Positions 40,846 to 62,419 of a stretch of DNA of 64,000 bases are shown here, piece after piece. Under the pieces are notes generated by a model. That model made no database searches. It saw only the letters and a list, made by a program, of their open reading frames with translations, and was not told the origin of the DNA. This DNA is from Longispora sp. K20-0274 (GTDB lineage: Bacteria > Actinomycetota > Actinomycetes > Mycobacteriales > Micromonosporaceae). The translations under genes were made by a program, and so were the position numbers. Location: assembly GCF_047121295.1 (NCBI RefSeq), contig NZ_CP139447.1, positions 3,298,665 through 3,362,664 of the forward strand, given 5' to 3'. Numbering within the stretch: the stretch's first letter is position 1; each line of letters begins with the position of its first letter.

Positions 40846-40885
40846 AACCACGCCCCGGGACCACCGGGGCCTCCTGGGGAGAGAC

Positions 40886-41305
40886 ATGGCACAGAAGACG
40901 AGTACGGTGCGGGATCTCGCCTGGCTGCTCGATGACCTGGTGGACCGGGTCGCGCATGCCCGGCAGGCGGCGGTGCTGTCGGCCGACGGCCTGCTGATCG
41001 CGGCGTCCAGTGGGCTCGACCGCGAGGACGCCGACCACCTCTCGGCCGTCGCGGCCGGGTTCCAGAGCCTGGCCCGGGGCGCCGGCCGGCACTTCGGTGG
41101 CGGCTCGGTGCGCCAGACCATCATCGAGATGGACTCGGCCTTCCTGTTCGTGATCGCCGCCGGGCACGGGGCGTGCCTGGCGGTCCTCGGGTCGGAGGAC
41201 GCCGACATCGGCCTCATCGCGTACGAGATGGCGATGCTCGTCGCCCGGGTCGGGCAGTACCTGGCCACCCCGTCGCGTACCTCCGTCATGGCTGCCGAGG
41301 TCTGA
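40886..41305 (+). CDS. cvnB: Roadblock/LC7 domain protein (CvnB)
   Basis: ~140 aa with the typical Roadblock pattern (...AAVLSADGLLIAAS...FLFVIAAGHGACLAVLG...). GGGGAGAG RBS lies upstream. Confidence 0.8.
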   Translation: MAQKTSTVRDLAWLLDDLVDRVAHARQAAVLSADGLLIAASSGLDREDADHLSAVAAGFQSLARGAGRHFGGGSVRQTIIEMDSAFLFVIAAGHGACLAVLGSEDADIGLIAYEMAMLVARVGQYLATPSRTSVMAAEV

Positions 41306-41307
41306 CC

Positions 41308-41661
41308 ATGAACGAATGGCTGGACGAGGATGCCGGGCCGGTCGTCCGCCCGTACGCCATGACCCGTGGCCGGACCCGCCCCTCCACGGGCGAGTTCGAC
41401 CTGATCGCCCTCGTCGTCTCCACCGGTGCGACGGCCGCCGGCCTCGAGCCGGAGCACACGGCGATCCTGGGCCTGTGCGACGCGCCCCTGTCGGTGGCCG
41501 AGATCTCGGCGCACCTGGACCTGCCGGTCGGCATCATCCGGGTGTTCCTGGGCGACCTGCTCACCGCCGGGCTGATCCAGGCCCGTGCGCCGCAGCCGGC
41601 GGCCGAGCTGCCGAGCAGGCGGACCCTCCTGGCGGTGATCGATGGTCTCCGTGCCCTCTGA
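41308..41661 (+). CDS. cvnC: DUF742 protein (CvnC)
   Basis: VRPYAMTRGRTRP...FDLIALV...LSVAEISAHLDLPVGIIRVFLGDLL is the characteristic DUF742 pattern. It starts 3 nt after the cvnB stop. Confidence 0.75.
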   Translation: MNEWLDEDAGPVVRPYAMTRGRTRPSTGEFDLIALVVSTGATAAGLEPEHTAILGLCDAPLSVAEISAHLDLPVGIIRVFLGDLLTAGLIQARAPQPAAELPSRRTLLAVIDGLRAL

Positions 41662-42223
41662 CGCCACCACGCTGCCCACCGCGATCAAGATCCTGGTCGC
41701 GGGCGGGTTCGGCGCGGGCAAGACGACCCTCGTCGGCGCGGTCAGCGAGATCAAGCCGCTGCGCACCGAGGAGACCATCACCGAGGAGAGCGTCGGCATC
41801 GACGACCTGTCCGGGGTGGAACGCAAGGAGACCACGACGGTCGCCATGGACTTCGGCCGGATCACGATCAACCCGGAGCTGGTGCTGTACCTGTTCGGCA
41901 CCCCCGGCCAGGACCGGTTCTGGTTCGTCTGGGACGAGCTCGCGCTCGGCGCCGTCGGTGCCGTCGTGCTGGCCGACACCCGCCGGCTGCCCGGCTGCTT
42001 CCCGTCGATCGACTACTTCGAACGCCGGGGCACCCCGTTCATCGTCGCCGTGAACTGCTTCGACGGCGCCGACCGGCACGACCCGGCCGAGGTGCGCGCG
42101 GCGCTGGACCTGGACCCGGAGGTGCCGGTCGTGCTGTGCGACGCCCGGGTCCGCGCGTCCAGCAAGGAGGTCCTGATCACGCTGGTCGAGCACGTGGTGA
42201 ACTCCACCCCGGCCTACGCGTAG
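41642..42223 (+). CDS. cvnD: ATP/GTP-binding protein, small Ras-like GTPase (CvnD)
   Basis: P-loop GGFGAGKTT, DTPGQ, and NCFD (NKxD-like) motifs. Overlaps the cvnC end. Confidence 0.8.
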   Translation: MVSVPSDATTLPTAIKILVAGGFGAGKTTLVGAVSEIKPLRTEETITEESVGIDDLSGVERKETTTVAMDFGRITINPELVLYLFGTPGQDRFWFVWDELALGAVGAVVLADTRRLPGCFPSIDYFERRGTPFIVAVNCFDGADRHDPAEVRAALDLDPEVPVVLCDARVRASSKEVLITLVEHVVNSTPAYA

Positions 42224-48631: not shown

Positions 48632-49852
48632 TCAGGTGCCGGCGGTCGCGGGCCGGGCGACGCCGATGCGGACCAGGTCCGTGACCAGCTCGGTCGCATC
48701 GGCGGCGTCGAGTCCGGGCACGAGGTCGGCGGCACACCACGGTTCCGGGTCGTCGGCGGTCAGCAGTGCCGCAACGACGGCGGCGGCCGGCTCCTCGAAC
48801 TCGACGGTGAACGCGCCGAGGTGCAGCCGGAGCCCGCCGCCGTCGAGTGCGGTGACCCCGCAGACCGCTTCGGCGACCGTGCGCACCGGGGTGTCCTCGG
48901 CCAGGCCGGGCAGGATCGCCGCGGTGGCGGCCGGGGTGCGCGGTTCGAGGAAGAACCTCCGGTAGGCGTCGGCCATGACCTCGGCGTCGGCGGCCGGATC
49001 GAGGCTGTTCAGGGCCGCGCGGAGCTGCGCGACCGTCGTGGCGACGGCCCTGGCTCGGAGGCGGGGGTCGGCGCAGAATCCCCACGGGACCTCCGCGCGC
49101 AGCTCTTCGACGGCGTCGAGCCGGGCGAGGAGCTGTGTCGCGATCCAGTGGCCGGTCAGCGCGGGGAAGGCCAGACTCAGGTGCAGTGAGTGCTCGTCGG
49201 TGGCGAACCCGTTGTGCACCCAGCCGCGGGGGATCCACAGCGCGTCCCCGACACGGAGCACGGTCTCCAGTTGGGGGGTGCCGTGGCGCAGTCGGGCCCA
49301 ATCCGCGTCGGAGACCCGCTCGGCGCGGAACGGCTGGTGTTCCAGCGGATCGGTGAGCACCGGGGCGTGCACCTGCCACGTCTTACTGCCGGAGGTCTGC
49401 ACGATCAGGACGGCATGCGTGTCGTGGTGGTGGGCGAAGCCCTGGCTGCCGGCCGGGGTGAGGTAGGCGTTCGCGCCGACCGGCAGGCCGGTCTCCCAGC
49501 TCAGGCGGCGGCACAGGTCGCCCACCGGTGGCCAGGTTCGGTGGAGCGACTCCAGCACCACGGTCGAGCCGTCGCGCAACAGGGTGGTGAGCCGGGCCGG
49601 GCGGACCACGTCGGCGAATCCGGGCTGGACAGGTCTGCCCGACCAGGTGTAGGTGCCGCCGGGCACCCGTCGGCCGTCGGTGACCACGCTGACCATCTGC
49701 CGGTGCAGCGACCCGTGGTCGAGCAGCGCGTCGACGTCCGCGAGACAGAACGGCGGCGGGGCCGGCAGCGACCAGATGGCCGGACGCCGGGGCGGAGCGG
49801 CGAGAAAGCCGGCGGGATCGGGTACGAGCCCCGACAGGGCGGTCAGGCGCAT
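48632..49852 (-). CDS. JmjC/cupin-4 family 2-oxoglutarate/Fe(II)-type oxygenase (putative peptide hydroxylase)
   Basis: HxD...H iron facial triad candidates (FAHHHDTHAV ... WVHNGF) in a cupin fold. GAGGAG RBS lies 6 nt upstream. The start overlaps the MFS stop by 10 nt. Confidence 0.7.
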   Translation of the reverse strand: MRLTALSGLVPDPAGFLAAPPRRPAIWSLPAPPPFCLADVDALLDHGSLHRQMVSVVTDGRRVPGGTYTWSGRPVQPGFADVVRPARLTTLLRDGSTVVLESLHRTWPPVGDLCRRLSWETGLPVGANAYLTPAGSQGFAHHHDTHAVLIVQTSGSKTWQVHAPVLTDPLEHQPFRAERVSDADWARLRHGTPQLETVLRVGDALWIPRGWVHNGFATDEHSLHLSLAFPALTGHWIATQLLARLDAVEELRAEVPWGFCADPRLRARAVATTVAQLRAALNSLDPAADAEVMADAYRRFFLEPRTPAATAAILPGLAEDTPVRTVAEAVCGVTALDGGGLRLHLGAFTVEFEEPAAAVVAALLTADDPEPWCAADLVPGLDAADATELVTDLVRIGVARPATAGT

Positions 49853-51087
49853 CGTCTGCTCCTCAGGGGTTGTCCGGCGTGCGCCGGTGCGGGTGCGGTC
49901 AACTGGGCGCGCACGGGACCCACGGTGCAGAGCGCGGCGCACAGGCCCAGACAGGCCGCCATCGTGCCGTAGCCGGCCTGCGGGCCGAACCGTTGCAGCA
50001 GCCAGCCCATGGTGACGAAGGCGAACGGGTAGAGGACGGAGCCGATCAGGGTCATCGAACTCTGGGCGCGGCCCATCAGGTCGTCGGGCACCAGTCGGTA
50101 GGTGTGCGCGGTGAGCGCGATGACGAGGACCGGGCCCATCGCGGACAACAGGGCCAGCCCGACGGCCGTCGGGACCGGGTACGGCGCCACCGCCACGAAT
50201 GTCGTCACGGCGACGGCGCCGACGCCGCTGGTCAGCACGGCGGTGTACGGCCGGTCGGTGACCAGCCGGGGGGCCAGGGCCGCGCCGACCAGTGCTCCGA
50301 CGGAGACCGTGCCGGCCAGTACCCCGATGAGGGTCGGTGTGGTGCCGTGTGCCCGCAGCATCGGCACCAGGCCGAAGAACGCACCGGCGGTGGCGAAGTT
50401 CAGCACCGACGACCAGACGGTGACGACGCGCAGGAACGGCTGACCGGCGACGAACCGCAGGCCGGTGCCGATGTCGGCGAGCATGCCACCGGCCGAACGC
50501 GGCGCCCCGCCGCCGAGGTCGCCGCCGATCCCGGCCACCAGCACCGCGCACGCGACGAACGTCGCCACGTCGAGGACGAAGGGAGCCCACGGCCACAGCG
50601 CGAACAGCGCCCCGCCGATCGCCGGTCCGAGGAGTCCGGCGGCGTAGGTCCGGGTCTCGTTGAGCGACACCGCCCGGGTGAGCTGGTCCGACCCGACCAG
50701 CGCGCGGAGCGCCCCGCCCAGCGACGGGTTGTACACGGAACTGACGAGGCCGTCGAGACCCGCGATCAGGAGCAATGGCCACACCGCGCGCGCCCCGGTG
50801 GCCAGCATGACCGCCGGGCCGGCCCACAGCACCGCCTTGACGAGGTCGACCCGGATCATGACGGTGCGCCGGCGCCACCGGTCGGCGAGGACGCCGGCCG
50901 GCAGCCGGGCCACGTTCAGCACGACGAGCCTGACGGTGGCCAGACCACCGGCCGCGACCGCCGAGCCGGTCAGGTGCAGGAGCAACAGCGGCAGGCAGAT
51001 GTCGCTGATCCGGGAGCCGAGCGCCGACAGCGCCTGGCCCCACCAGAACCGACCGAAGTCGCGGTTGCCCCGCAGCAGGCCGGTCAT
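49843..51087 (-). CDS. MFS transporter (putative exporter)
   Basis: 12-TM major facilitator pattern. The ATG overlaps the stop of the upstream flavoprotein gene as ATGA. Confidence 0.75.
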   Translation of the reverse strand: MTGLLRGNRDFGRFWWGQALSALGSRISDICLPLLLLHLTGSAVAAGGLATVRLVVLNVARLPAGVLADRWRRRTVMIRVDLVKAVLWAGPAVMLATGARAVWPLLLIAGLDGLVSSVYNPSLGGALRALVGSDQLTRAVSLNETRTYAAGLLGPAIGGALFALWPWAPFVLDVATFVACAVLVAGIGGDLGGGAPRSAGGMLADIGTGLRFVAGQPFLRVVTVWSSVLNFATAGAFFGLVPMLRAHGTTPTLIGVLAGTVSVGALVGAALAPRLVTDRPYTAVLTSGVGAVAVTTFVAVAPYPVPTAVGLALLSAMGPVLVIALTAHTYRLVPDDLMGRAQSSMTLIGSVLYPFAFVTMGWLLQRFGPQAGYGTMAACLGLCAALCTVGPVRAQLTAPAPAHAGQPLRSRRCA

Positions 51088-51629
51088 CCGGCTGCCCGCC
51101 ACTGCGCCTCGACGATCTTCGCGGTGCCCGAGGGGCCGGGCATGGCATGGCTGTCGCCGAACTCGCCGTTCCACAGGGTCAGGACGGTGGTCGGTTCCGG
51201 GGAGACCACCACGACCCCGCGCTCCCTCAGGCCGCGCACGGCGGCCTGCGTGGTCCGGGCCCGCCACATCGTCGGGTGCATGTGGGGGAAGAGAACGACC
51301 GGGGCGGGCGTGGCCAGCACGGCCGTGAGCGCGGGCGAGTTGGCCAGCCCCAACGCGGCGGACACCACGAAATTGGCCGTGGCGGGGGCGACGACCAGCA
51401 GCCGGGCGGTGTGCGCGAACGCGACCGGGTTGAATCCGGTCGCGTTCGGCTCGACCACCTCGTCGGCCAGCAATCGGATAGCGGTCGGCTGCACGAACGT
51501 CAGGGCGGCCGAGGTGAGCAGGACGGTGGTGGGCACCGGGAGCCGCCGCCGCCAGGCGGTCAGGTGCGCGGGCAGTTCGAGGGCCGCGCTGGCGCCGGTG
51601 CACACCACCGCCAACCGGTCAGCGGGCAT
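51084..51629 (-). CDS. lanD: HFCD-family flavoprotein, peptidyl-cysteine decarboxylase (LanD/EpiD/MicD-like)
   Basis: Flavoprotein fold (LAVVCTGASAALELP..., VVAPATANFVVSAALGLANS, PAPVVLFPHMHPTMW) typical of homo-oligomeric flavin-containing Cys decarboxylases. The start overlaps the lanKC stop by 11 nt. Confidence 0.75.
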   Translation of the reverse strand: MPADRLAVVCTGASAALELPAHLTAWRRRLPVPTTVLLTSAALTFVQPTAIRLLADEVVEPNATGFNPVAFAHTARLLVVAPATANFVVSAALGLANSPALTAVLATPAPVVLFPHMHPTMWRARTTQAAVRGLRERGVVVVSPEPTTVLTLWNGEFGDSHAMPGPSGTAKIVEAQWRAAG

Positions 51630-54204
51630 GGCCGACCCCGACGCCCGACCAGCCGTACCGCAGGTCCAGGGTCCGACCGCCGGTGGCCAGGCGGCGCAGC
51701 GCCAGGGCGATGCCCGCCGAGCCGGTCGCGAGGTCGCAGCTCAGCCGCAGCAGCCCGTCGCCGGGGAACGCCACGCCGTCGGGTCCGGGTCGGCGCAGCG
51801 CCACGATCTGCCCGACGAGGCCGGCCAGAGCCTCGTCGACGGCCGGGTCGCCGGGCAGCACGTCCCGGCAGTCCAGCAGGAACTCCACCAGGCCGGTCAT
51901 CCCGGAGAACAGCCCCGGATTGACGGTGAACGGCATGGCCACCCCGCGCACGATCGAGCCGAGGGTCGTCGTGAGCCGTTCGTCGCCGGTGACCGCGAGC
52001 CGCCGGGCCACGGCCATGCCGACGCCCGCTCCGCCGCGCAGGAGGTACGGCTCGTACGCCGTGGCCCGCGCGTACGCGCCAAAGCCCAGGCCGCCGTTGC
52101 GCCGGAGCCGGCCGCGTTCGAGGTCGAAGGCCAGCGCCCGGCCGCCGAGTCGCAGCAGGCGGTCGTCGCCGGTCCGCGCGCCCAGTTCGGTGAGGAAGCC
52201 CGACACCCCGGACGATCCGTGCAGGTAGCCGAGCGGGTGCCGCGCGGTGTCCGTGGGCCACCACAGTCCCGTGCCGTCATCCTCGGCCTCGCCGGTCAGC
52301 CGGGCGGCGACCTCCGTGGCCAGGTCCGTCCAGGAGCCGTCGCCGGTCGCGTCGGCCGCCGCGAGCAGGCCGAGCCCGACGCCGGCGCGTCCCGTGGCCA
52401 CCCCGGCCGGTAGCTTGCCGTCGACCGCCCGGCGCGCCGCGTCGCGCAACAGTGCCGTGCCCCGGTCGGTCTCGCCGGCCTCGAGGATGGTGACGGCGAT
52501 GCCCGTGGCGCCGACGTACAGTCCGGCGGGAAGCGCGGGGTGCTCGTCGAGCCGGGCCAGCAGCCAGTCGAGTGCCACCGGATCGGCCACGCCATCGAGG
52601 AGCAGCAGGGCGCGCAGGACGCCGGCGGCTCCGTAGGCCACCGACAGCGGATTCGTGCGGAACAGCTCCGGGTGGGCGGGGAAGAGCCGGTCGGCGCGGT
52701 GGGGGGTCGCCGCCGATCGCAGGTGCCGGACGACCCCGTCGACCAGCTCGGGTGGCGTGGGCGCCGGGCCGTCGTCGGCGGCGACGCCGGGGGCACCGCG
52801 CTCCAGGACGGCCAGCAGGTCCCCGAGCGGGCGGTCCAGCGCGGCGGCGGTGTGCCGCAGGGTGCGCCCGAACACGCCCGGGTCCAGGCCCAGCAGCGCG
52901 TTGCGGGGAACGACGCAGGCCGCCTCGACGGCGGCGACGGAGAACCGCAGGTAGTCGTGGTCCACGCCCCATGCCGGTGAACCGACCTCCGGCGCGAACC
53001 CCAAGGTCCGGGGGTACCCGGCGGGGTCGTCTCCGGCGGGACGGCAAGCCTCGAAGTCGACCAGCCGCACCGTGTCGTCCTCGTCGACGAGGATGTTGGT
53101 GAGGGACAGGTCGCCGTGCACGACGCCATGGTCCGCGCAGGTCCGCACGGCGGCGGCGAGCTGCGTGAGCAGACCGTCGACCCTCCGGTTGTACGCGGCG
53201 ACCGTGTCGCGATCGGTGAATCCGCGCGCGAAGGGGTGGTGCCGCGCCAGCCACACCTGCAGAGTGATCCCGGGGACCAGGCTCTGCACGAGGAACGTGT
53301 GCTCCCACAGCCGGGTGAGCTCCACGGCCGCCGGCGCGACCCCGGTGCCGGCCAGGTCCAGCAGGAAGGCGTGCTCCCGGTGCAGCCGTTCGACCGCGTC
53401 GGACCCGTCGGGGGCGAACGCCGTGTGCGGCCGGGCCTCCTTGAGTACGACGTCGCGACCGTCGGGCCCGGTGGCCAGGTACACCCCGCCGGCTGTGGAG
53501 TGGCGCAGGACGGACCGGACCCGGTACCTGGTCAGCAGGTCACCACCGGTCGGTTCCGTCCCCGGCGGGAAGGGGTCCTCGGTGACCCACGGCGGCAGCG
53601 TGAACCGGGGGGTGCGCGCATCCGTCCACGCGGTCCCGTCCGGGCCGGTCACCGTGGCCGTGACGTGCCCGTCGGCATCGACGCCGGCCGGCCGGCGCAC
53701 CGTGCCGTACCGGTACTGCACCGTGCCGCTGCCCGGGTAGCGCCGGTCGGTCAGGATGTGCGGCCCCGCGAACCCGTCGAGGCGGTGGGCCAGCCGGTCG
53801 GCGAGCTCGCGGGCGTGCCCGACCGAGGTGGGGTACACCGTCACGGCCTTTCCCGCCCCGCCCCTCGACCACCAGCGGCTGAGCTGGGCGACGGCGAGCT
53901 CCGTGGACCGCACGCACTTGAAGCTGAACGGGCCCTCGAGGTACTCGTCGACGACCGCGTCCACCACGGCCAGCACGTCGGCGGGCCGGCAGGACACGTG
54001 CAGTTTCCAGCCGTGCGCCGGCAACTGTGACATGGGCTGGGCCAGGCACCGGACCCAGATCCCCATGGCCGAGACCGCGCCGGTGTCACCGAGGCGGTCG
54101 CGCACCAGGTCACGCAGGTCGGCGGTGTCGGGCCCGTGGTCGATCCGCTCGTAGTACAGCGGATCGGCGATCGCGTAGGCCCGCAACGATTCGATGATGG
54201 ACAC
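51619..54204 (-). CDS. lanKC: Class III lanthipeptide synthetase LanKC (N-terminal lyase, central Ser/Thr kinase, C-terminal zinc-ligand-free LanC-like cyclase)
   Basis: Lyase-domain N-terminus (...GWKLHVSCRP...) and a kinase core (VVHGDLSLTNILV ... VDFE). The C-terminal cyclase domain has GYLHGSSG and NPGLFSGMTG where LanC/LanM enzymes carry WCHG and CHG, so the Cys-Cys-His zinc site is absent. A GTG at 54204 is preceded by GGAGGA. The track shows a 1294-aa ORF whose first ~430 aa are antisense low-complexity artefact. Confidence 0.85.
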   Translation of the reverse strand: MSIIESLRAYAIADPLYYERIDHGPDTADLRDLVRDRLGDTGAVSAMGIWVRCLAQPMSQLPAHGWKLHVSCRPADVLAVVDAVVDEYLEGPFSFKCVRSTELAVAQLSRWWSRGGAGKAVTVYPTSVGHARELADRLAHRLDGFAGPHILTDRRYPGSGTVQYRYGTVRRPAGVDADGHVTATVTGPDGTAWTDARTPRFTLPPWVTEDPFPPGTEPTGGDLLTRYRVRSVLRHSTAGGVYLATGPDGRDVVLKEARPHTAFAPDGSDAVERLHREHAFLLDLAGTGVAPAAVELTRLWEHTFLVQSLVPGITLQVWLARHHPFARGFTDRDTVAAYNRRVDGLLTQLAAAVRTCADHGVVHGDLSLTNILVDEDDTVRLVDFEACRPAGDDPAGYPRTLGFAPEVGSPAWGVDHDYLRFSVAAVEAACVVPRNALLGLDPGVFGRTLRHTAAALDRPLGDLLAVLERGAPGVAADDGPAPTPPELVDGVVRHLRSAATPHRADRLFPAHPELFRTNPLSVAYGAAGVLRALLLLDGVADPVALDWLLARLDEHPALPAGLYVGATGIAVTILEAGETDRGTALLRDAARRAVDGKLPAGVATGRAGVGLGLLAAADATGDGSWTDLATEVAARLTGEAEDDGTGLWWPTDTARHPLGYLHGSSGVSGFLTELGARTGDDRLLRLGGRALAFDLERGRLRRNGGLGFGAYARATAYEPYLLRGGAGVGMAVARRLAVTGDERLTTTLGSIVRGVAMPFTVNPGLFSGMTGLVEFLLDCRDVLPGDPAVDEALAGLVGQIVALRRPGPDGVAFPGDGLLRLSCDLATGSAGIALALRRLATGGRTLDLRYGWSGVGVGHAR

Positions 54205-54221
54205 GCTTCCTCCCCTGGGGT

Positions 54222-54246
54222 GGGGCCCGGAGCGGATCCGGGCCCC
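54222..54246 (-). promoter_or_regulatory. Stem-loop (10-bp GC stem GGGGCCCGGA/TCCGGGCCCC, 5-nt loop) between precursor gene and lanKC; candidate attenuator/processing site
   Basis: Perfect inverted repeat seen in the 55-nt spacer between the precursor stop and the lanKC start. No U-tract follows it. Confidence 0.4.
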
Positions 54247-54259
54247 GTGAGCGGTCGGA

Positions 54260-54358
54260 CTAGCAGCCGTAGCTGACGCCGCTGCCGTCGGTGTCGGGCG
54301 AGACGTACTCGGCCGTCTCGTCGTTCTCGATGACCTGCAGGTCCAGAACCTCTGCCAT
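54260..54358 (-). CDS. lanA: Class III lanthipeptide precursor peptide, 32 aa: MAEVLDLQVIENDETAEYVSPDTDGSGVSYGC
   Basis: This ORF is absent from the supplied track because it is shorter than 60 aa. AAGGAG RBS lies 6 nt upstream of the ATG. The leader carries the class III (I/L)(L/F)(D/E)LQ recognition motif as VLDLQ. The core ends in S-x-x-S-x-x-C with a C-terminal Cys, a labionin/avionin-type motif. It lies immediately upstream of lanKC on the same strand. Confidence 0.75.
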   Translation of the reverse strand: MAEVLDLQVIENDETAEYVSPDTDGSGVSYGC

Positions 54359-54550: not shown

Positions 54551-57500
54551 ATGCGCGCCGGCCGGACAGCGGGCATGCTGTCGTGCATGGACGGTGACGG
54601 GCGCGCGGGGACGGAGCGGTGCTGGTGGGCGCGCGGGCTGACCCTGACCGAACGGCCGACGCCGGCCCCCGGGCGGGTCGTCGCCGGGGACGCCGACCGG
54701 GCGGCCCGCAGGCTGGCCCGGTGGCGCACGGTGTTCCCGACCGGCGAGGCGTTCGGTGCCCGGCTCGCCGCGGCCGGCATCGACGAGAATGTCCTGGCGC
54801 TGCTGCTGGCCGAGGACGCCACCTCGCTCGCCGGCCGGGTCGACCGGCCCGACTGGGCCGGCTTCGCCGAACGGGCCGCCCAGCTGGCCCGGCCACCGAC
54901 CGGGCGGGAATTCACCTGGGAGGACGGGTTCGGCGCCATCGTCGGCCCGTTCGCGGAGCTGGCGGCCCGTGAACTGCTGGCCGCCGAGCCGGGACTGCGC
55001 GACCTGCGGGCCGGCTTCACCGCCCAGACCAGGGGGCTGCTGACGCGCCTGGCCCGCCGGACACTGGTCCTGGAGCTCAACGTGTACCGGGTGTCCGGCC
55101 GCCTCGACGGGGCCATGCCCCGTGACCGGTTCGCCAGCTTCGTGCGCCAGCTGTGCACCAGGGAGGGACTCACCGCGCTGATCGAGGAGTACGCGGTGCT
55201 GGCCCGGCTGCTGGCCCAGGCGTGCCTGCAGAACGTGACCGCCTGGGTGGAGCTGTACGGAAGGTTCACCCGGGACCGCCCCGCCATCGTCGCCGACCTG
55301 CTGGGCGCCGTCGAACCAGGTCCGTTGGTGGAGATCGCCTCCGGCGCCGGTGACCGGCACCGGGGCGGCCGGTCCGTGGCGGTGCTGAGGTTCGCCGACG
55401 GCGCGCGGGTCGTGTACAAACCCCGACCGGTGACCGCGCACGCCCTGTTCAACTGTGCCGTGCGCTGGCTCAACGCGCGGATGCCGGGGCCGGCCCTCCC
55501 CACGCTGGCTCTGCTGTCGCGACCGTCCCACGGCTGGGTGGAGTTCGCGGCCCACGCGCCGTGCCGGGACCGCGACGGGGTCGACCGGTTCTACCGCAGG
55601 CAGGGCGCGACCCTGGCCCTGCTGCACGCTCTGGACGCCACCGACATCCACCACGAGAACCTCGTGGCCCGTGGCGACGAGCCGGTGCTGGTGGACCTCG
55701 AGACCCTGCTGCATCCGACCCTGCCGGTCCCCGGACCGCGCGCCACGGACCCGGCGGCCCGGGCGATGGACTCCTCGGTGTACCGAACGGCCCTGCTGTC
55801 CCTGCCGGTGGTCGGCGACCACGGCATGATCGACCTGTCCGGCCTCGGCGCGGACAAGGGGGCTTTGAGCCCGCTGGACGGGGTCGGCTGGGGCGCGCCC
55901 GGTACCGACGAGATGCGGCTGGTCCGCCGGCAGGAGACCTTCGAGGGCTCGGACAACCGTCCCCGGCTCGACGGACGCGACGCCGATCCGGCGGCGTACA
56001 CCGCCAGCCTGCTCTCCGGTTTCCGCGACGCGTACCAGGCCATCGCCTCGGGTCGGGCCGAACTCGTCGGTCCCGACGGGCCGTTGGCCGCATCCGGGGG
56101 TGCCGACCTGCGGGTGGTGGTCCGACCCACCCGGGTGTACGCGACGCTGCTCGACGAGTCGACCCACCCCGACGTGCTGCGCGACGCCCTCGACCGGGAC
56201 CGGCTGCTGGACACACTGTGGGCGGACTCGACCGGCGCCGCGCTGTGGTGGCAGGTGGCCGGCGCGGAGATCGCCGGCCTGTGGGCGGGCGACATTCCGC
56301 TGTTCGACACCAGGTCGGACTCCCTCGCCCTGGCTTCGGGCGGGTTCACCCTCGACGGGGCACTCGACGCCACCGGCGTGCGCCGGGTCTCCGCCAAGCT
56401 CGCCGCGCTGGGCGGGCCGGACCAGTACGACCAGGAATGGATCATCCAGGCCGCGCTCGCCACCCGCGCACCGCTGCCCGAGCACCGGCCGGGGCGGTCC
56501 GGCGCCCATCCGCACGCGACGACGGTGCCCGACCGCGACCGGCTTCTCGCCTCGGCCTGCGGCATCGCCGACCAGTTGGTCGCGATGGCCTTCGAGGACG
56601 ACCACCACGCGAACTGGCTGGGCCTGGAGCCCGTCGACGACCGGCACTGGATGGTGCTGCCTCAGGGCGCGGGCCTGGCCCACGGGTACTGTGGCACCGC
56701 GCTCCTGCTCGCCCAGCTGGCGGGGATCACCGGGACCGCCCGGTACGCGCGGCTCGCCCGCAGGGCGGTGTGCCCGATTCCGAACCTGCTCGACCACCTC
56801 GCCCGGCACCCCGAACAGGCCGCGGCGGTCGGCTGCGGCGGATTCGCCGGCTTCGGCGGCATCGCCTACGCCCTCAGCCACCTGGCGGCGCTCCTGGACG
56901 ACGGGGAGGTCGCCGGCTGGGTGCCGGGCGCGGTCCGGCTGGTCGCCGGGGCCGCCCACGGCAGCGGGCCGGGCGTGCTGACCGGGGCCGCCGGCGGGGT
57001 GGCCGCCATGCTCGCCGTGCACGCGACAACGGGTTCGGACCTGGCCTGGGACGCGGCGCGGACCTGTGCCGACGCGGTACTGGCAGCCGATCCGGCCGGG
57101 TTGCCCGCCGGATTCGGCACCGGACTCGCGGGGATGGGCTGGGCCCTCGCCCGGTTCGGGGCCTCCGGCGGTGGCACCCGCTACGCCGACGCCGGCCGCG
57201 CGCTGCTGGCCGCGAGCCGTCCGGCGGCGGACGATCCCAGCTGGTGCCACGGCCTGCCAGGCCTGGCGCTCGCCCTGGCCGACCTGGGGGACACACCGGC
57301 GGGCGGGACCGTGGACCGGGCGGTCGGCGCCGTGGCGGCCCGGCCGCCGCTGGACGACCACAGCCTGTGCCACGGCGAGCTCGGCGGCCTGGAGCTGCTG
57401 GTGGAGGCCGCCGCCGGCGGGCACCACGCCGCCAGGGCCGGGCGGATCCCCCGGGCGGGCCTGCTGCTGGCGGCCCTGGACCGCGTCGGCCCTCAGTGCG

Positions 57501-57673
57501 CCACCCCGGGCCTGGTGCCCAGCCCGGGTCTGCTCACCGGGCTGGCCGGGATCGGCTACGGACTGCTGCGGCTGGGCTTCCCCGACCGGACGCCCAGCGT
57601 CCTCCTGCTCAGACCACCCCACGCGCCCGCGACTCGGCCGGGCGCGGTGTCCCTACGACAAGGAGCGACATGA
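54551..57673 (+). CDS. lanM: Class II lanthipeptide synthetase LanM (N-terminal DUF4135 dehydratase domain + C-terminal LanC-like cyclase with intact zinc ligands)
   Basis: Dehydratase/kinase-like motifs DIHHENLVARGDEPVLVDLETLL, and cyclase motifs LAHGYCG, SWCHGLPG, SLCHGELGG (Cys-Cys-His zinc site). Start uncertain; ATG 54551, 54575 and 54587 are all possible. Confidence 0.8.
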   Translation: MRAGRTAGMLSCMDGDGRAGTERCWWARGLTLTERPTPAPGRVVAGDADRAARRLARWRTVFPTGEAFGARLAAAGIDENVLALLLAEDATSLAGRVDRPDWAGFAERAAQLARPPTGREFTWEDGFGAIVGPFAELAARELLAAEPGLRDLRAGFTAQTRGLLTRLARRTLVLELNVYRVSGRLDGAMPRDRFASFVRQLCTREGLTALIEEYAVLARLLAQACLQNVTAWVELYGRFTRDRPAIVADLLGAVEPGPLVEIASGAGDRHRGGRSVAVLRFADGARVVYKPRPVTAHALFNCAVRWLNARMPGPALPTLALLSRPSHGWVEFAAHAPCRDRDGVDRFYRRQGATLALLHALDATDIHHENLVARGDEPVLVDLETLLHPTLPVPGPRATDPAARAMDSSVYRTALLSLPVVGDHGMIDLSGLGADKGALSPLDGVGWGAPGTDEMRLVRRQETFEGSDNRPRLDGRDADPAAYTASLLSGFRDAYQAIASGRAELVGPDGPLAASGGADLRVVVRPTRVYATLLDESTHPDVLRDALDRDRLLDTLWADSTGAALWWQVAGAEIAGLWAGDIPLFDTRSDSLALASGGFTLDGALDATGVRRVSAKLAALGGPDQYDQEWIIQAALATRAPLPEHRPGRSGAHPHATTVPDRDRLLASACGIADQLVAMAFEDDHHANWLGLEPVDDRHWMVLPQGAGLAHGYCGTALLLAQLAGITGTARYARLARRAVCPIPNLLDHLARHPEQAAAVGCGGFAGFGGIAYALSHLAALLDDGEVAGWVPGAVRLVAGAAHGSGPGVLTGAAGGVAAMLAVHATTGSDLAWDAARTCADAVLAADPAGLPAGFGTGLAGMGWALARFGASGGGTRYADAGRALLAASRPAADDPSWCHGLPGLALALADLGDTPAGGTVDRAVGAVAARPPLDDHSLCHGELGGLELLVEAAAGGHHAARAGRIPRAGLLLAALDRVGPQCATPGLVPSPGLLTGLAGIGYGLLRLGFPDRTPSVLLLRPPHAPATRPGAVSLRQGAT

Positions 57674-57867
57674 CCGACACAGATCTGATCAGGTCCTGGA
57701 AGGACCCGGAGTCCCGCGACGAGCCGGCCGCCGACCATCCGGTGGGGGAGATCCGACCCAGGATCGACCTGCGCGCGGGCTCCCGAGTCCTGGCGCTGGT
57801 CGGCATGGCCGGCGTCCTGTTCGCGTCGCTGCCGGGCACCGAGACGACGACCTCGCTGACCGGGTGA
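57670..57867 (+). CDS. 65-aa peptide with class II (LanM-type) leader motif but no cysteine: MTDTDLIRSWKDPESRDEPAADHPVGEIRPRIDLRAGSRVLALVGMAGVLFASLPGTETTTSLTG
   Basis: The ATG overlaps the lanM stop (ATGA) and has AAGGAG 5 nt upstream. The N-terminus carries the (I/L)xxWK(D/N)PxxR leader motif seen in mersacidin/lichenicidin-alpha-type LanA peptides. The C-terminal half is hydrophobic with a TETTTS tail and contains no Cys. Confidence 0.5.
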   Translation: MTDTDLIRSWKDPESRDEPAADHPVGEIRPRIDLRAGSRVLALVGMAGVLFASLPGTETTTSLTG

Positions 57868-57942: not shown

Positions 57943-60870
57943 ATGCAGCTGACGTCTCCGGTGCTCATCGGCCGCAGTTCCGAGATCGCCGCGCTGGAGG
58001 CCGGGATCGAGGCCGCCCGCACCGGTTCCGGGCGGGCGGCCTTCCTGGTCGGGGAGGCGGGGGTCGGCAAGTCCCGGCTGGCCGCCGAGTGCGCCTACCG
58101 GGCGTTCGCCGCCGGCATGCCCGTGCTGCGCGGCCGGTGCAGTTCCACCGGGGTGCGGATGCCGCTGCGTCCCATCACGGAGGCGCTACTCTCCCTGTTC
58201 CGCACCGGAGGTCCGCCGAGGAACCCGGAACTGGAACCGTACCGGCCCGCCCTCGCCCGGCTCGTGCCCGACTGGCGGGACAAGGGGGCGCCGGACGAGC
58301 CCGGGGCTTTGATCGAGACCGCCGAGGCGGTGCTGCGCCTGCTCGCGGTGGTCGGCGCGGACGGCGGCTGCGTTCTCGTGCTGGAGGACCTGCACGACGC
58401 CGACGCCGAGACACTGGCGGTGCTGGAGTATCTGGTCGACAACGTCGCCGGCCTGCGCGTGTTCCTGCTCGGCGCCCTGCGCTCGGCACCCGGCCCGGCC
58501 CTCGACCTGGCCAGGGCCACCGGGCGACGGCGGACGGCGGTCCTCGCCGAACTCGCCGGGCTGACCGATGAGCAGGTGCGACAGATGGCGGCGGCGTGCC
58601 TGTCCGTCCCCGTCGACGAGCTGTCCGGTCCGGTCGCCGACCGGCTCGTCCGGTACGGCGACGGGAACCCGTTCGTCGTCGAGGAACTCCTCGGCGGCAT
58701 GGTCGCGGCGAACCTGCTGCGCCCCTCGACCGACGGGTGGCGGGTGTTCGGCGACCTGACCCTGGACGTTCCGACCACCGTGGTGCGCAGCGTGACCCTG
58801 CGCGTCGACGGCCTCGGCCCGCAGGGCGCCGAGCTGTTGCACGTCGCCGCCGTGCTCGGCCGGCGGTTCACGCTGTCGGAACTGCGGACCGTGACCGGCC
58901 TCGACGACCGCGGCCTGCTGGGGCACCTGCGCGCCGGGGTCAACGCCCAACTGGTATCGCCGAGCGGACCCGCTCCCGACTGCTACGAGTTCCGCCATGC
59001 GCTCACCGTCGAGGCGCTGCTCAGCTCGATCGGGCCCGCGGAGAGGGCGGCCATCGCCCGGCGGGCCGCCGACGCGCTCGAGGCCGCGCACCCCGGGCAG
59101 CCCGGCGACTGGTGTCAACGACTCGCCGTGCTGCGCCAGTCCGCCGGCGATCCGGTGGCGGCCGGCCTGCTGCTCGTCCGTTCCGGCCGGGCGGCGCTCG
59201 CCTCCGGCGCGGTCGCGTCGGCGGTGGACCTGCTCGAACGGGCCCAGGGCCTCGCCCCGGAGATGGCCCCCGAGCAGCGGGCCGACGTCCTCGAGGCGTT
59301 GTTGTACGCGCTCGCCGAGGCCGGCCAGCTCGACCGGGCCCAGACGGTGCTGGCCACGGCACCCGTCGCCGGGCCTGGAGCCCTCGACCGGGTCAGGGGC
59401 GCCGCGCTGCGGGCCCGGCTGGCCTGGGTGGCGGTGACCGCGGGGCGGATGGCCGACGCCGCGATCCACCTCGCGGTGGCCCGGCAGCTGGCCGGACCCG
59501 GACCCGGGCCGCAGGTCGCCGCCGCCATCGACATCGTCGCGGCCCGGCTGACGTTCTCGGGCAGGGACGGCACCCGGGGGCTCGACCGGGTCGCGGAGGC
59601 CGAGGAACTGGCCCGCCGGGCCGCCGATGCCGCGGAGTCGGCCGGGCTGCCCGTGGTGGCCTGCCAGTCCTGGCAGTTCCTCGCCCTGCTCGCCCGGCGG
59701 CGTGGCATCGACGCCTCCGACAGCTGTGTCCATCGGCTGCTCGCGGTGGCGGAGGAGCACTCGCTACCGGTCTGGTACGCCAACGGCCTGCTCTGGCTGG
59801 GGATCAACGAGTTCCTCCGCACGGCGGAATCCAGCCACCTCGAGCGGGCCCGTCAGGCCACGCTCGGTCTCGGACGGATCGCGCTGACCCACACGGCCGA
59901 GGCGACGCTCGCGATGCACGCCGTGTTCCGGGCCGACTTCGCGACGGCCCGCCAACTCGCCGACTCCTGTGCCGACGCCAGCGCCCGGCTGCGCGACGTG
60001 GACAACCACCAGTACGCGGTGCTGGCCCGGGCCGCGCTCGCCGCGCACCAGGGCCGGCGCCGGGAGATGGACACCGAACTGGCCGAGTTCCGCGACTGGC
60101 AGGGCGAACAGTCGATGCTCATGCCGTTGGTCTTCGGCCGGTGCAGGGCCGTCTGCGCGCTCCTGGAGGAGAAACGGGGCGAGGCGATGGCCGAGCTCGA
60201 CCGCGGGGCTGCCTGGGAGGACCAGCACCCGAACGTGTTCCACCTCGACGGCAGGTACGGGCTCCGCCCGCTGCTCGGTGTCCTCGCCGGCCGGGTGACG
60301 GCGTCCGAGCACGCGAGCCTGGCCGCCGAGCCCGCCGCCCAGCTGCGGTGGAACCGGCAGTTCGTCCTGCTCGCGAGGGCGGTGCTGCTCGGCACGGCCG
60401 GCGACGCGTCGGCGGCGGCGGAGGCGGTCGTCGAGGCGCGCGCGGAGGCGGCGCCGTTTCCGACGACCCATCACCTCGGACTGCGGTTGGTCGCGGAGGC
60501 CGCGCTCGCCGACGGTTGGGGCGAACCGGTCGCCTGGCTCCGCACGGCCGAGGGGTACTTCCACGGTGCGGGAATCCCCGCGGTGGCCGGGGCGTGCCGC
60601 GCGTTGCTCCGGCGGGCCGGCGCGAACGTGGGCCAGCGCCGGGCCGGGATCGAGGAGGTTCCCGTCGCGGTCCGCAGACAGGGGATCACCCTCAGGGAGT
60701 ACCAGGTCCTGCAACTTCTCGTGGCCCGGCCCAGCAACCAGGACATCGCCCAGCGGTTGTTCATCTCTCCCCGGACGGTGGAGAAGCACATCGCCAGCCT
60801 GATCGCGAAGACCCACCGCCCCGACCGCGCGGCACTGAGCGAGTACGCGGCGGACCTGTCGGCGACCTGA
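57943..60870 (+). CDS. LAL-family transcriptional regulator (N-terminal AAA ATPase, TPR-like middle, C-terminal LuxR HTH)
   Basis: Walker A GEAGVGKS, Walker B VLVLEDLHDAD, and a C-terminal LuxR HTH (LREYQVLQLLVARPSNQDIAQRLFISPRTVEKHIASL). Confidence 0.85.
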   Translation: MQLTSPVLIGRSSEIAALEAGIEAARTGSGRAAFLVGEAGVGKSRLAAECAYRAFAAGMPVLRGRCSSTGVRMPLRPITEALLSLFRTGGPPRNPELEPYRPALARLVPDWRDKGAPDEPGALIETAEAVLRLLAVVGADGGCVLVLEDLHDADAETLAVLEYLVDNVAGLRVFLLGALRSAPGPALDLARATGRRRTAVLAELAGLTDEQVRQMAAACLSVPVDELSGPVADRLVRYGDGNPFVVEELLGGMVAANLLRPSTDGWRVFGDLTLDVPTTVVRSVTLRVDGLGPQGAELLHVAAVLGRRFTLSELRTVTGLDDRGLLGHLRAGVNAQLVSPSGPAPDCYEFRHALTVEALLSSIGPAERAAIARRAADALEAAHPGQPGDWCQRLAVLRQSAGDPVAAGLLLVRSGRAALASGAVASAVDLLERAQGLAPEMAPEQRADVLEALLYALAEAGQLDRAQTVLATAPVAGPGALDRVRGAALRARLAWVAVTAGRMADAAIHLAVARQLAGPGPGPQVAAAIDIVAARLTFSGRDGTRGLDRVAEAEELARRAADAAESAGLPVVACQSWQFLALLARRRGIDASDSCVHRLLAVAEEHSLPVWYANGLLWLGINEFLRTAESSHLERARQATLGLGRIALTHTAEATLAMHAVFRADFATARQLADSCADASARLRDVDNHQYAVLARAALAAHQGRRREMDTELAEFRDWQGEQSMLMPLVFGRCRAVCALLEEKRGEAMAELDRGAAWEDQHPNVFHLDGRYGLRPLLGVLAGRVTASEHASLAAEPAAQLRWNRQFVLLARAVLLGTAGDASAAAEAVVEARAEAAPFPTTHHLGLRLVAEAALADGWGEPVAWLRTAEGYFHGAGIPAVAGACRALLRRAGANVGQRRAGIEEVPVAVRRQGITLREYQVLQLLVARPSNQDIAQRLFISPRTVEKHIASLIAKTHRPDRAALSEYAADLSAT

Positions 60871-61328: not shown

Positions 61329-61477
61329 ACCTTCCAGCATCACATTGTTGTGCCCTTGGAGACTTCTGCCGGGGCTGCCGGCGAAGTGCGGAGGAAAAGT
61401 CTCAAGCGCGGCGTGCGGTTGGCGGGAGCGTGGCGCGGCGGTCTAGATTTCTGGGTACCGGATACGTGGAGGTCGTC

Positions 61478-62419
61478 GTGCGTGCTGTCGCCGTGTCGGA
61501 GTTCGGAGCGACCCCCGGGGTGGTGGAGCTGCCCTCCCCGGAGCCCGGCCCCGGGCAGGTCCTGGTCCGGATGCGCGCCGCCGGGCTCAACCCGTTCGAC
61601 TGGAAGGTCGGCGAGGGTGCGCTGGACGGCCGGGTGCGGCACCGGTTCCCGCTGGTCCTCGGCTCGGACGGCGCGGGCGAGGTGGCGGGGCTCGGCGCGG
61701 GCGTCACCGGGTTCGCCGAGGGCGACCGGGTGTTCGGCTCCTTCATGCGCCTCGGCGACGGCGGCGGCTCCTACGGCGAGTACGCGGTCGCCGACGCCGC
61801 CGGGCTCGCCCGGATGCCCGACGGGGTGGCGTTCACGGACGCCGCCGCGTTGCCGATGGCCGCGACGACGGCCCTCAACCTCGTGGACGGCGCGCACGTC
61901 TCGCGGAGCCAGACGGTGCTGGTGGTCGGGGCGACCGGCGGGGTCGGCACGTTCGTCGTGCAGCTGGCCGCCGGGCGCGGCGCGCACGTGATCGCCACGG
62001 CCCGCCCCGACGCCGCCGACGCGGTGCTCGCGCTCGGGGCGCAGGAGACCGTGGACCACACGGCGGGTCCGGTGGCGAGGCAGGTGCTGGCCCGGTACCC
62101 GCATGGTGTGGATGTCCTGATCGACGTCGCCAGCGACCATGCCGGCCTGGCGGCGGTGTCGGCGGCGGTCCGCTGGGGCGGGGTGGTCGGGGCCAGCACC
62201 TGGGCCGTGGACCCCGAGGCCCTGGCCGCGCGCGACATCCGGGGCTTCAACCTCGACAACCGGGCCACGGCCGAGCACCTGCGCACCGTGGTCGAGGAGG
62301 TGGCCGCCGGCCGGCTGCGGGTCGCGATCGACAGCGTCGTGCCCCTCGCCGAGGCGCCCGCCGCGCTGGCCCGCAGCCGGGCTGGCTCGGCGCGCGGCAA
62401 GACGGTCATCACGATCTGA
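61478..62419 (+). CDS. MDR-superfamily NAD(P)H:quinone oxidoreductase / zinc-binding alcohol dehydrogenase-like
   Basis: GroES-like N-terminus and a Rossmann motif VVGATGGVGTFVVQLA. A GTG at 61478 was chosen, with GGAGG 6 nt upstream. Confidence 0.75.
   Translation: MRAVAVSEFGATPGVVELPSPEPGPGQVLVRMRAAGLNPFDWKVGEGALDGRVRHRFPLVLGSDGAGEVAGLGAGVTGFAEGDRVFGSFMRLGDGGGSYGEYAVADAAGLARMPDGVAFTDAAALPMAATTALNLVDGAHVSRSQTVLVVGATGGVGTFVVQLAAGRGAHVIATARPDAADAVLALGAQETVDHTAGPVARQVLARYPHGVDVLIDVASDHAGLAAVSAAVRWGGVVGASTWAVDPEALAARDIRGFNLDNRATAEHLRTVVEEVAAGRLRVAIDSVVPLAEAPAALARSRAGSARGKTVITI

Follow-up and report, generated by a model that had tools for sequence, protein, structure and literature searches.

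A LanM, Cys-free peptide and LAL regulator unit in Longispora sp. K20-0274 and other actinomycetes: a candidate system for dehydration without lanthionine rings

We analysed a stretch of 64,000 nucleotides of high-GC DNA from Longispora sp. K20-0274 (assembly GCF_047121295.1, contig NZ_CP139447.1, positions 3,298,665 to 3,362,664 of the forward strand), hereafter the window, in which position 1 is the first letter. It contains a gene for a class II lanthipeptide synthetase-like protein, LanM (lanM, 54551..57673, + strand), whose stop codon is overlapped by a gene for a 65-amino-acid (aa) precursor-like peptide without Cys (57670..57867, +; NCBI R8Z50_15570, 'hypothetical protein'), and after these a gene for a 975 aa LAL-type regulator (57943..60870, +). 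We call this arrangement a triad, defined here as a LanM, then a 56-87 aa peptide with a (WKDP)...HPAGEI leader, then a regulator with AAA_16 and GerE domains. On balance we think it probable, with real room for doubt, that the 65 aa open reading frame (ORF) encodes the cognate substrate of this LanM and that, as a member of the triad, it would yield a linear, dehydrated and ring-less peptide coupled to the LAL regulator.

The stop codon of lanM (TGA, 57671-57673) and the start codon of the peptide gene (ATG, 57670-57672) overlap as ATGA, and direct reading places a Shine-Dalgarno sequence, AAGGAG (57660..57665, +), 4 nt (CGAC) before this ATG. The translation, MTDTDLIRSWKDPESRDEPAADHPVGEIRPRIDLRAGSRVLALVGMAGVLFASLPGTETTTSLTG, has no Cys among its 65 residues. 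The overlap, the upstream AAGGAG, the ORF and the missing Cys had all been described in the initial annotation of this DNA and are confirmed on reading the sequence. Within the ORF the GC content at the first, second and third codon positions (GC1/2/3) was 0.66/0.55/0.92, with GC3 rising to 0.97-1.0 in the 3' half. A leave-one-out hidden Markov model (HMM), built from 50 other members of the peptide family, matched the ORF with 59.9 bits (E 7.5e-18) over profile positions 1-62 of 68, and when the family HMM was run over all six frames of the window nothing besides the 65 aa ORF rose above noise. The ratio of non-synonymous to synonymous substitution rates (dN/dS) between two Kitasatospora orthologues of the peptide was 0.34. 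By its composition and conservation the 65 aa ORF is a real gene, with its Cys-free tail in the correct frame. The earlier statement that the window has no other class II-type precursor also holds, as no second ORF with a LanM-type leader was found in six frames over the 64 kb. A scan for terminators and promoters after the peptide stop codon found none, and a hairpin at this place, considered as an attenuator or terminator, was rejected since its folding energy of -30.6 kcal/mol was no better than that of shuffled sequences (z -0.53).

The family alignment and the model TIGR03898 delimit an N-terminal leader at residues 1-28 (57670..57753, +), which reads LIRSWKDPESR ... DHPVGEI. A second conserved motif, RAGSRVLALVG (residues 35-45; 57772..57804, +), aligns to GRRAxLLAG of the family and begins a hydrophobic stretch, and the Ser/Thr-rich tail SLPGTETTTSLTG (residues 53-65; 57826..57864, +) offers seven candidate dehydration sites. 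TIGR03898, which describes mersacidin/lichenicidin-type precursors, matched residues 5-19 only (profile positions 1-15 of 44), with 16.3 bits (E 0.007) against a cut-off of 23.5. The proposed likeness to mersacidin and lichenicidin precursors therefore stands for the leader, which follows (I/L)xxWKDPxxR, and not for family membership, which includes a Cys-rich core and for which the peptide scores below the curated cut-off. Compared with precursors of this type, the window peptide lacks the TxTxEC lipid II-binding core, any Cys and a GG/GA cleavage context with LanT, and it has RRAxLLAG in addition.

Apart from the peptide itself, word-index searches recovered just three relatives, which are from Kitasatospora and have no Cys. 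An exhaustive profile search, run against 1.84e9 representative proteins, returned 79 peptides of 56-127 aa, nearly all of them 56-87 aa, which have the leader LVRxWKDPxxR...DHPAGEI in common (family consensus LVRxWKDPxARxxxxxDHPAGEI). In the best-scoring matches this leader is followed by GRRAxLLAG and then by a variable Ser/Thr-rich tail; the weakest matches lack this second motif and represent canonical LanA peptides, in which 4-7 Cys and a Gly-Gly region occur. A pattern for the R..LL motif, crude enough to miss the window peptide itself, picked 50 of the 79, with no Cys in 31, one in 12, two in six and three in one. No model in Pfam or NCBIfam covers the family, TIGR03898 reaches it through the leader only and below cut-off (19 of 51 members), and all its database entries are labelled 'hypothetical protein'. 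The 'actinopeptin' family of Pfam (DUF6229; PMC13509491) was considered and rejected as a separate family, the window peptide having no Pfam match.

Residue frequencies were compared across 59 peptides of the subfamily. Cys made up 0.59% of their residues and 0.98% of those in the window proteins, and because this is near background, Cys is neither required nor avoided in the family. Ser and Thr together accounted for 26% of the last 20 residues compared with 10% both in the leader and in proteins of the window; no member has fewer than three Ser/Thr in these 20 residues, where Thr outnumbers Ser by 202 to 110. From these frequencies it seems that Cys is irrelevant in the peptide tails and that hydroxyl residues are selected. 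A transmembrane-like (TM-like) stretch of 19 residues (Kyte-Doolittle >=1.6) was found in 24 of the 59 and was clearly absent (<1.0) in 23; the window peptide reaches 1.71, its hydrophobic segment overlapping the RRAxLLAG-type motif. Judged by hydropathy, membrane anchoring is not a property of the family, although it is possible for the window peptide.

The LanM protein is 1040 aa long from its first ATG, or 1028 aa from the start used in the NCBI annotation (54587, 12 codons downstream). It matched TIGR03897 with 671.7 bits (cut-off 304) and, at its N-terminus, the Pfam domain DUF4135 with 404.9 bits, and the closest solved structure was that of LicM2 (PDB 6ST5, E 1e-83). Together with a LANC_like match and a LanKC, or class III synthetase, gene on the minus strand, these results bear out the description of a full-length LanM divergent from a class III operon. 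The active-site motifs of the dehydratase domain are all present (55343..56140, +), namely GDRH (aa 268-271), YKPR (289-292), DIHHEN (365-370), DLE (382-384) and RPT (525-527), and supply the D/H, K, D-H-N, D and R..T residues of a class II synthetase, whose catalytic roles we take to be those known from CylM. In a MAFFT alignment of 128 LanM proteins, comprising the 120 best database relatives and eight LanMs from the collected loci, the GDxH, YKPR, DxHxxN, DLE and RPT columns were invariant or conservatively substituted throughout.

The C-terminal cyclase domain presents a different picture. Its seven-repeat barrel is still recognisable, and it matched LANC_like above the cut-off of 23.2, but with 75.4 bits compared with 199.5 bits in a canonical relative. 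The motifs for the Cys/Cys/His zinc ligands are kept, as SWCHG (Cys899; WCHG at aa 898-901) and SLCHG (Cys940 and His941; LCHG at aa 939-942), together spanning 57239..57385 (+). The intact zinc ligands of the initial annotation are thus present, but the description was incomplete: in the repeat-4 motif, GFGTGLAG (57110..57133, +), Thr857 occupies the canonical His position of GF[AS]HG (GFGTG, aa 854-858). This His is presumably the acid/base residue of the cyclase, equivalent to His212 of NisC, His219 of LanCL1 and His790 of CylM. Across the 128 LanMs the column holds His in 24, one of 15 other residues in 103 and a gap in one, and the use of 15 different residues is a pattern of relaxed constraint; the canonical LanM of locus L006 keeps GFSHG. 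A phmmer search of PDB sequences gave no alignment across the repeat-4 His segment. The LanM of locus L012 has lost two of the zinc-ligand Cys, and the LanM homologue of Longispora albida DSM 44784 (L008, 8095-10011) has 639 aa and consists of the DUF4135 dehydratase only, without a LanC-like domain; its gene is followed by one for a Cys-free peptide, MSVDDLVREWKSPEYRAADHPAGEIVLDELSATDIYITTTSKTTVALGEFEADLVA, and then by a LAL gene. Taken on its residues, the cyclase domain of the window LanM is degenerate, and the simplest reading of the clade would be that its enzymes now act solely as leader-guided dehydratases of Ser/Thr. The genome of Longispora sp. K20-0274 encodes a second LanM outside the window (P0014; 1016 aa, 52% identical) with the cyclase motif GFASG, and since Ser replaces the His here too, P0014 probably belongs to another LanM/peptide/LAL unit.

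With a narrow alignment of the peptides as query, seven related loci were recovered, and in total the order LanM, Cys-free peptide, LAL was observed in 13 places, the window and 12 others, in at least five genera (Longispora, Micromonospora, Kitasatospora, Streptomyces and Kutzneria). Six are in Kitasatospora (L001, L003, L007, L009, L010 and L013), and besides the window the others are in Streptomyces eurythermus (L005), Longispora albida (L008), Kutzneria (L014), Micromonospora (L015), locus L012 and one metagenomic contig. The overlap of the lanM stop with the peptide start recurs in L011, L012 and the P0129 contig. Cys-rich peptides that share the leader of the family lie instead in ordinary clusters, with LanM, LanT, several LanA and a luciferase-like enzyme, or with LanM and SARP-type regulators, and these clusters have no LAL gene beside the peptide. 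The second motif (RRAxLLAG) occurs in the LAL-associated subfamily alone, and the canonical Cys-rich relatives do not have it. Neither a C39-ABC LanT nor an immunity gene was conserved among the triad loci examined.

The LAL-type regulator of the window has, by Pfam, an AAA_16 STAND ATPase domain, a TPR-like middle region and a C-terminal LuxR/GerE helix-turn-helix. Each of the 12 other triad places has an orthologue after the peptide, as does every place whose contig is long enough to reveal one. By tblastn against eight distinct loci, the LAL proved 46-61% identical to that of the window, and in seven of the eight it was at least as conserved as LanM (45-55%), with the peptide at ~42%. In architecture and in having biosynthetic genes as neighbours it resembles cluster-situated LAL (MalT-like STAND LuxR) regulators; compared with typical members of that type, it is unusually conserved, the Longispora and Kitasatospora proteins being as much as 61% identical, and it keeps strict synteny with the gene of a small peptide. 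In Kitasatospora sp. CM 4170 an IS605 OrfB/TnpB-type gene has inserted between the Cys-free peptide and the LAL (L013:10738-12006) and so breaks up a unit that is invariant elsewhere.

A LanKC gene adjoins the triad in six of the 13 places (the window, L001, L003, L007, L010 and L012), often with genes for an MFS transporter and a SARP regulator nearby, and none was found within the flanks of ~7-10 kb in L005, L008, L009, L013, L014 and L015. In L001 and L003 the genes form a cassette of a 171-177 aa uncharacterised protein, LanKC, SARP, LanM, peptide and LAL, which is located in the core chromosome between folC (Mur ligase family) and valS, near clpX/clpP, and this is not a typical variable region of secondary metabolism.

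These loci place the window in a group that has been noted before. Walker et al. (2020; PMC7268733), with reference to Zhang et al. (2015), describe clusters with both LanM and LanKC in which the LanM-associated precursors lack Cys, and they left these precursors out of their lanthipeptide counts because they have no Cys. The six places with LanKC fit this description. Longispora sp. K20-0274 has both an actinomycete LanM with an adjacent Cys-less precursor and a LanKC in the same cluster, and its LanKC has a class III precursor of its own, unlike those of L001, L003 and L007, for which none was recognised. In the sampled triads LanKC is optional, whereas the LAL is present whenever visible. 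The window locus adds one case to a group that is recognised from genome data but uncharacterised, and the initial view of the case as unprecedented has to be given up in the light of the published genome surveys.

From these observations we propose the following course of events for the window peptide. The LanM would recognise the mersacidin-like N-terminal leader, LIRSWKDP...DHPVGEI, and use ATP to phosphorylate Ser53, Thr57, Thr59-61, Ser62 and Thr64 of the tail; elimination of phosphate by the same enzyme would then give dehydroalanine (Dha) and dehydrobutyrine (Dhb). No lanthionine ring should form on the peptide, because it has no Cys and because the acid/base His of the cyclase has been lost (Thr857). 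The product would be a linear peptide with Dha/Dhb and, being linear, would not be a lanthipeptide, the core of which has both Ser/Thr and Cys; the 65 aa peptide has only the former. The LAL may either sense the peptide or act as a regulator of its own operon and perhaps also of the class III operon beside it. Dehydration and the sites modified are inferred from sequence, and the leader may be removed. A dehydration-only product was one of several options offered in the initial annotation, and it is the one favoured by the conserved Cys-free family, the kept dehydratase residues, the lost cyclase His and the cyclase-less relative.

Several points weigh against this proposal. Among the 50 family members selected by the motif pattern, 19 carry 1-3 Cys, so that some relatives may still form a ring, and the LanMs of L009 and L013 keep the repeat-4 His although their peptides are Cys-free. 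The C/C/H zinc ligands are kept in 97 of the 103 His-less LanMs, which is not expected of simple cyclase decay and hints at a remaining function, and the role of the GF[AS]HG His as catalytic acid is taken over from NisC, CylM and LanCL1. The triad has no conserved protease, exporter or Dha/Dhb reductase that would deal with a reactive linear dehydropeptide. Our search for precursors covers the 64-kb window, and the genome has the second LanM, P0014. Finally, full-text literature searches found no experimental characterisation of any member of the group.

A partial parallel is offered by bicereucin, a two-peptide lantibiotic with a lanthionine-containing partner and export functions, in which Dha and Dhb are reduced to D-amino acids by the LanJ reductase. 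The triad differs in that it has no conserved LanJ, partner LanA or LanT, in that the cyclase His is lost, and in the constant presence of the LAL. What the two would share is a Cys-less LanM substrate and dehydration without ring formation; Bsj-alpha of Bacillus cereus SJ1 is described as a LanM substrate without any Cys (Huo and van der Donk 2016, as summarised in PMC10125368).

A reading that extends the favoured one makes the triad a signalling circuit, in which the dehydrated peptide, or the leader together with the RRAxLLAG segment, is the ligand of the STAND/LAL regulator, with a logic like that of lantibiotic autoinduction or RRNPP sensing. Instead of producing an antibiotic, such a circuit might govern the class III operon next to it. 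We regard this as possible and clearly doubtful. It draws on the presence of the LAL after the peptide wherever the contig is long enough, on the conservation of the LAL relative to LanM in seven of the eight loci, on a triad without LanT, protease or immunity genes, on the restriction of RRAxLLAG to the LAL-associated subfamily, and on the LanKC operons that adjoin six of the 13 places. However, cluster-situated LAL and SARP activators are common in actinomycetes without being product sensors, and the variable core tails would need to be read by a highly conserved receptor. The idea of a regulatory peptide, already among the initial options, gains some weight from the LAL that follows the peptide. 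A signalling role is worth testing because there are no export or processing genes, RRAxLLAG is specific to the subfamily and the LAL is highly conserved. In its fullest form, which we put forward tentatively, the triad would be no natural-product pathway of the usual kind but a peptide-based regulatory device, in which a synthetase reduced to its dehydratase marks the peptide, and the co-evolving LAL reads it, or its leader and RRAxLLAG segment, and switches neighbouring genes, for example a class III operon of the SapB-like or aminovinylcysteine (AviCys) type; in a variant of this, the zinc site would add a cellular thiol to the dehydrated tail.

LanCL enzymes add glutathione to dehydrated residues, and the retained zinc site leaves room for a comparable step here, in which an external thiol would be joined in trans to Dha/Dhb after dehydration by LanM. 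Candidate thiols would be mycothiol, free Cys, coenzyme A or a Cys supplied by a second peptide, for instance the class III product. The zinc ligands persist in 97 of 103 His-less relatives despite the background level of Cys in the peptides, and Cys-bearing class III precursors adjoin the triad in the window and in L010. We consider this route unlikely all the same, given that the acid/base His is lost to 15 different substitutes, which looks like relaxed constraint, that one relative lacks the cyclase domain and another two of the zinc ligands, and that several genomes have the triad without LanKC; moreover, the zinc may be purely structural.

It is very unlikely, in our view, that the true target of the LanM is the class III precursor or a Cys-containing LanA encoded elsewhere in the genome, with the 65 aa peptide serving as a competitor or as a membrane-anchored immunity or tethering peptide. 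A TM-like stretch does occur in the window peptide and in ~40% of the family, and the second LanM in the genome means that other precursors probably exist. But the class III precursor has a VLDLQ leader and none of LanM type, the 64 kb hold no further ORF with such a leader, and P0014 is itself His-less and probably the second unit of triad type. The Ser/Thr enrichment of the family tails and the conserved translational coupling of the peptide to LanM fit a substrate, and the degeneration of the cyclase speaks against a Cys-rich true substrate. Of two suggestions made at the outset, a membrane immunity peptide is weakly supported at best, because 23 of the 59 members clearly lack the hydrophobic stretch and no lantibiotic needing immunity is evident, and a trans action of the LanM on the class III precursor is improbable because that peptide has no LanM-type leader and the triad also exists without LanKC. 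As to a frameshift or sequencing error that conceals a Cys-containing core, which had been raised as one way in which the case could fail, we give it practically no credence: the +1 frame downstream does encode ...STCARAPESWRWSAWPASCSRRCRAPRRRPR, with four Cys, but position-specific GC3 marks the annotated frame and leaves the others non-coding in composition, the tail aligns with Cys-free homologous tails, ~20 independently sequenced homologues (at the DNA level or as called proteins) are likewise Cys-free, and the leave-one-out HMM agrees.

The class III operon that lies divergent from lanM (48632-54358, - strand) encodes a 32 aa precursor with a VLDLQ leader and a core ending ...SGVSYGC (54260..54358, -; a weak match to NF038159), the LanKC (51619..54204, -; NF038151, 688.7 bits), which has a GTG start with a GGGGAGGA site upstream, and an HFCD flavoprotein that is LanD-like (51084..51629, -; Pfam Flavoprotein, with a weak CypD match). 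It also encodes an MFS transporter and a JmjC-domain protein. The C-terminal Cys and the decarboxylase suggest a class III product of AviCys/avionin type, possibly hydroxylated. The Kitasatospora LanKCs are only 27-37% identical to that of the window. By a sequence-pattern search a class III precursor was recognisable in the window and in L010 and was not recognised in L001, L003 and L007, the reliability of this negative being limited by the search pattern. In these three loci the region upstream of lanKC is conserved (L001:2225-2484, L003:2626-3110 and L007:2964-3306) and has an open frame with a shared 'SQW(F/L)PSGR(W)C' stretch, which may be a leader ORF, a precursor of unusual type or a regulatory element that has been conserved. 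Operator-like repeats in the intergenic region between lanM and the class III operon were considered and rejected, as they were weak and driven by GC content only.

LanJ-A reductases belong to a superfamily related to medium-chain dehydrogenase/reductase (MDR) and quinone oxidoreductases, and an MDR/quinone-oxidoreductase-like gene, assigned by sequence reading only, lies two genes past the LAL (61430-62419, +); it is not syntenic elsewhere. Farther away, three co-directional genes at 38524-42223 (+) resemble a conservon (cvn) operon, as judged by reading their translations only, and encode a 773 aa membrane sensor-kinase-like protein, a 159 aa roadblock-like protein and a 193 aa small GTPase with GGFGAGKTT.

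To a specialist in peptides that are synthesised ribosomally and modified after translation (RiPPs), the absence of Cys alone is unsurprising, and the interest lies in the testable purpose of a LanM system without rings. Lanthipeptide synthetases are defined by the formation of rings, and a large actinomycete clade appears to have given them up, since the cyclase His is missing from 103 of the 128 LanMs and the whole cyclase domain from one relative. These LanMs are still strictly associated with a Ser/Thr-rich peptide and with a large LuxR regulator that depends on ATP. The group has been invisible and unstudied because genome-mining pipelines discard Cys-less peptides (Walker et al. 2020). 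With its three genes the triad is compact and its substrate obvious, which makes it a direct target for heterologous expression. It poses the question of what role a lanthipeptide enzyme has when no lanthionine can form, and dehydrated linear peptides of this kind may serve actinomycetes as signals, surfactants or antibiotics.

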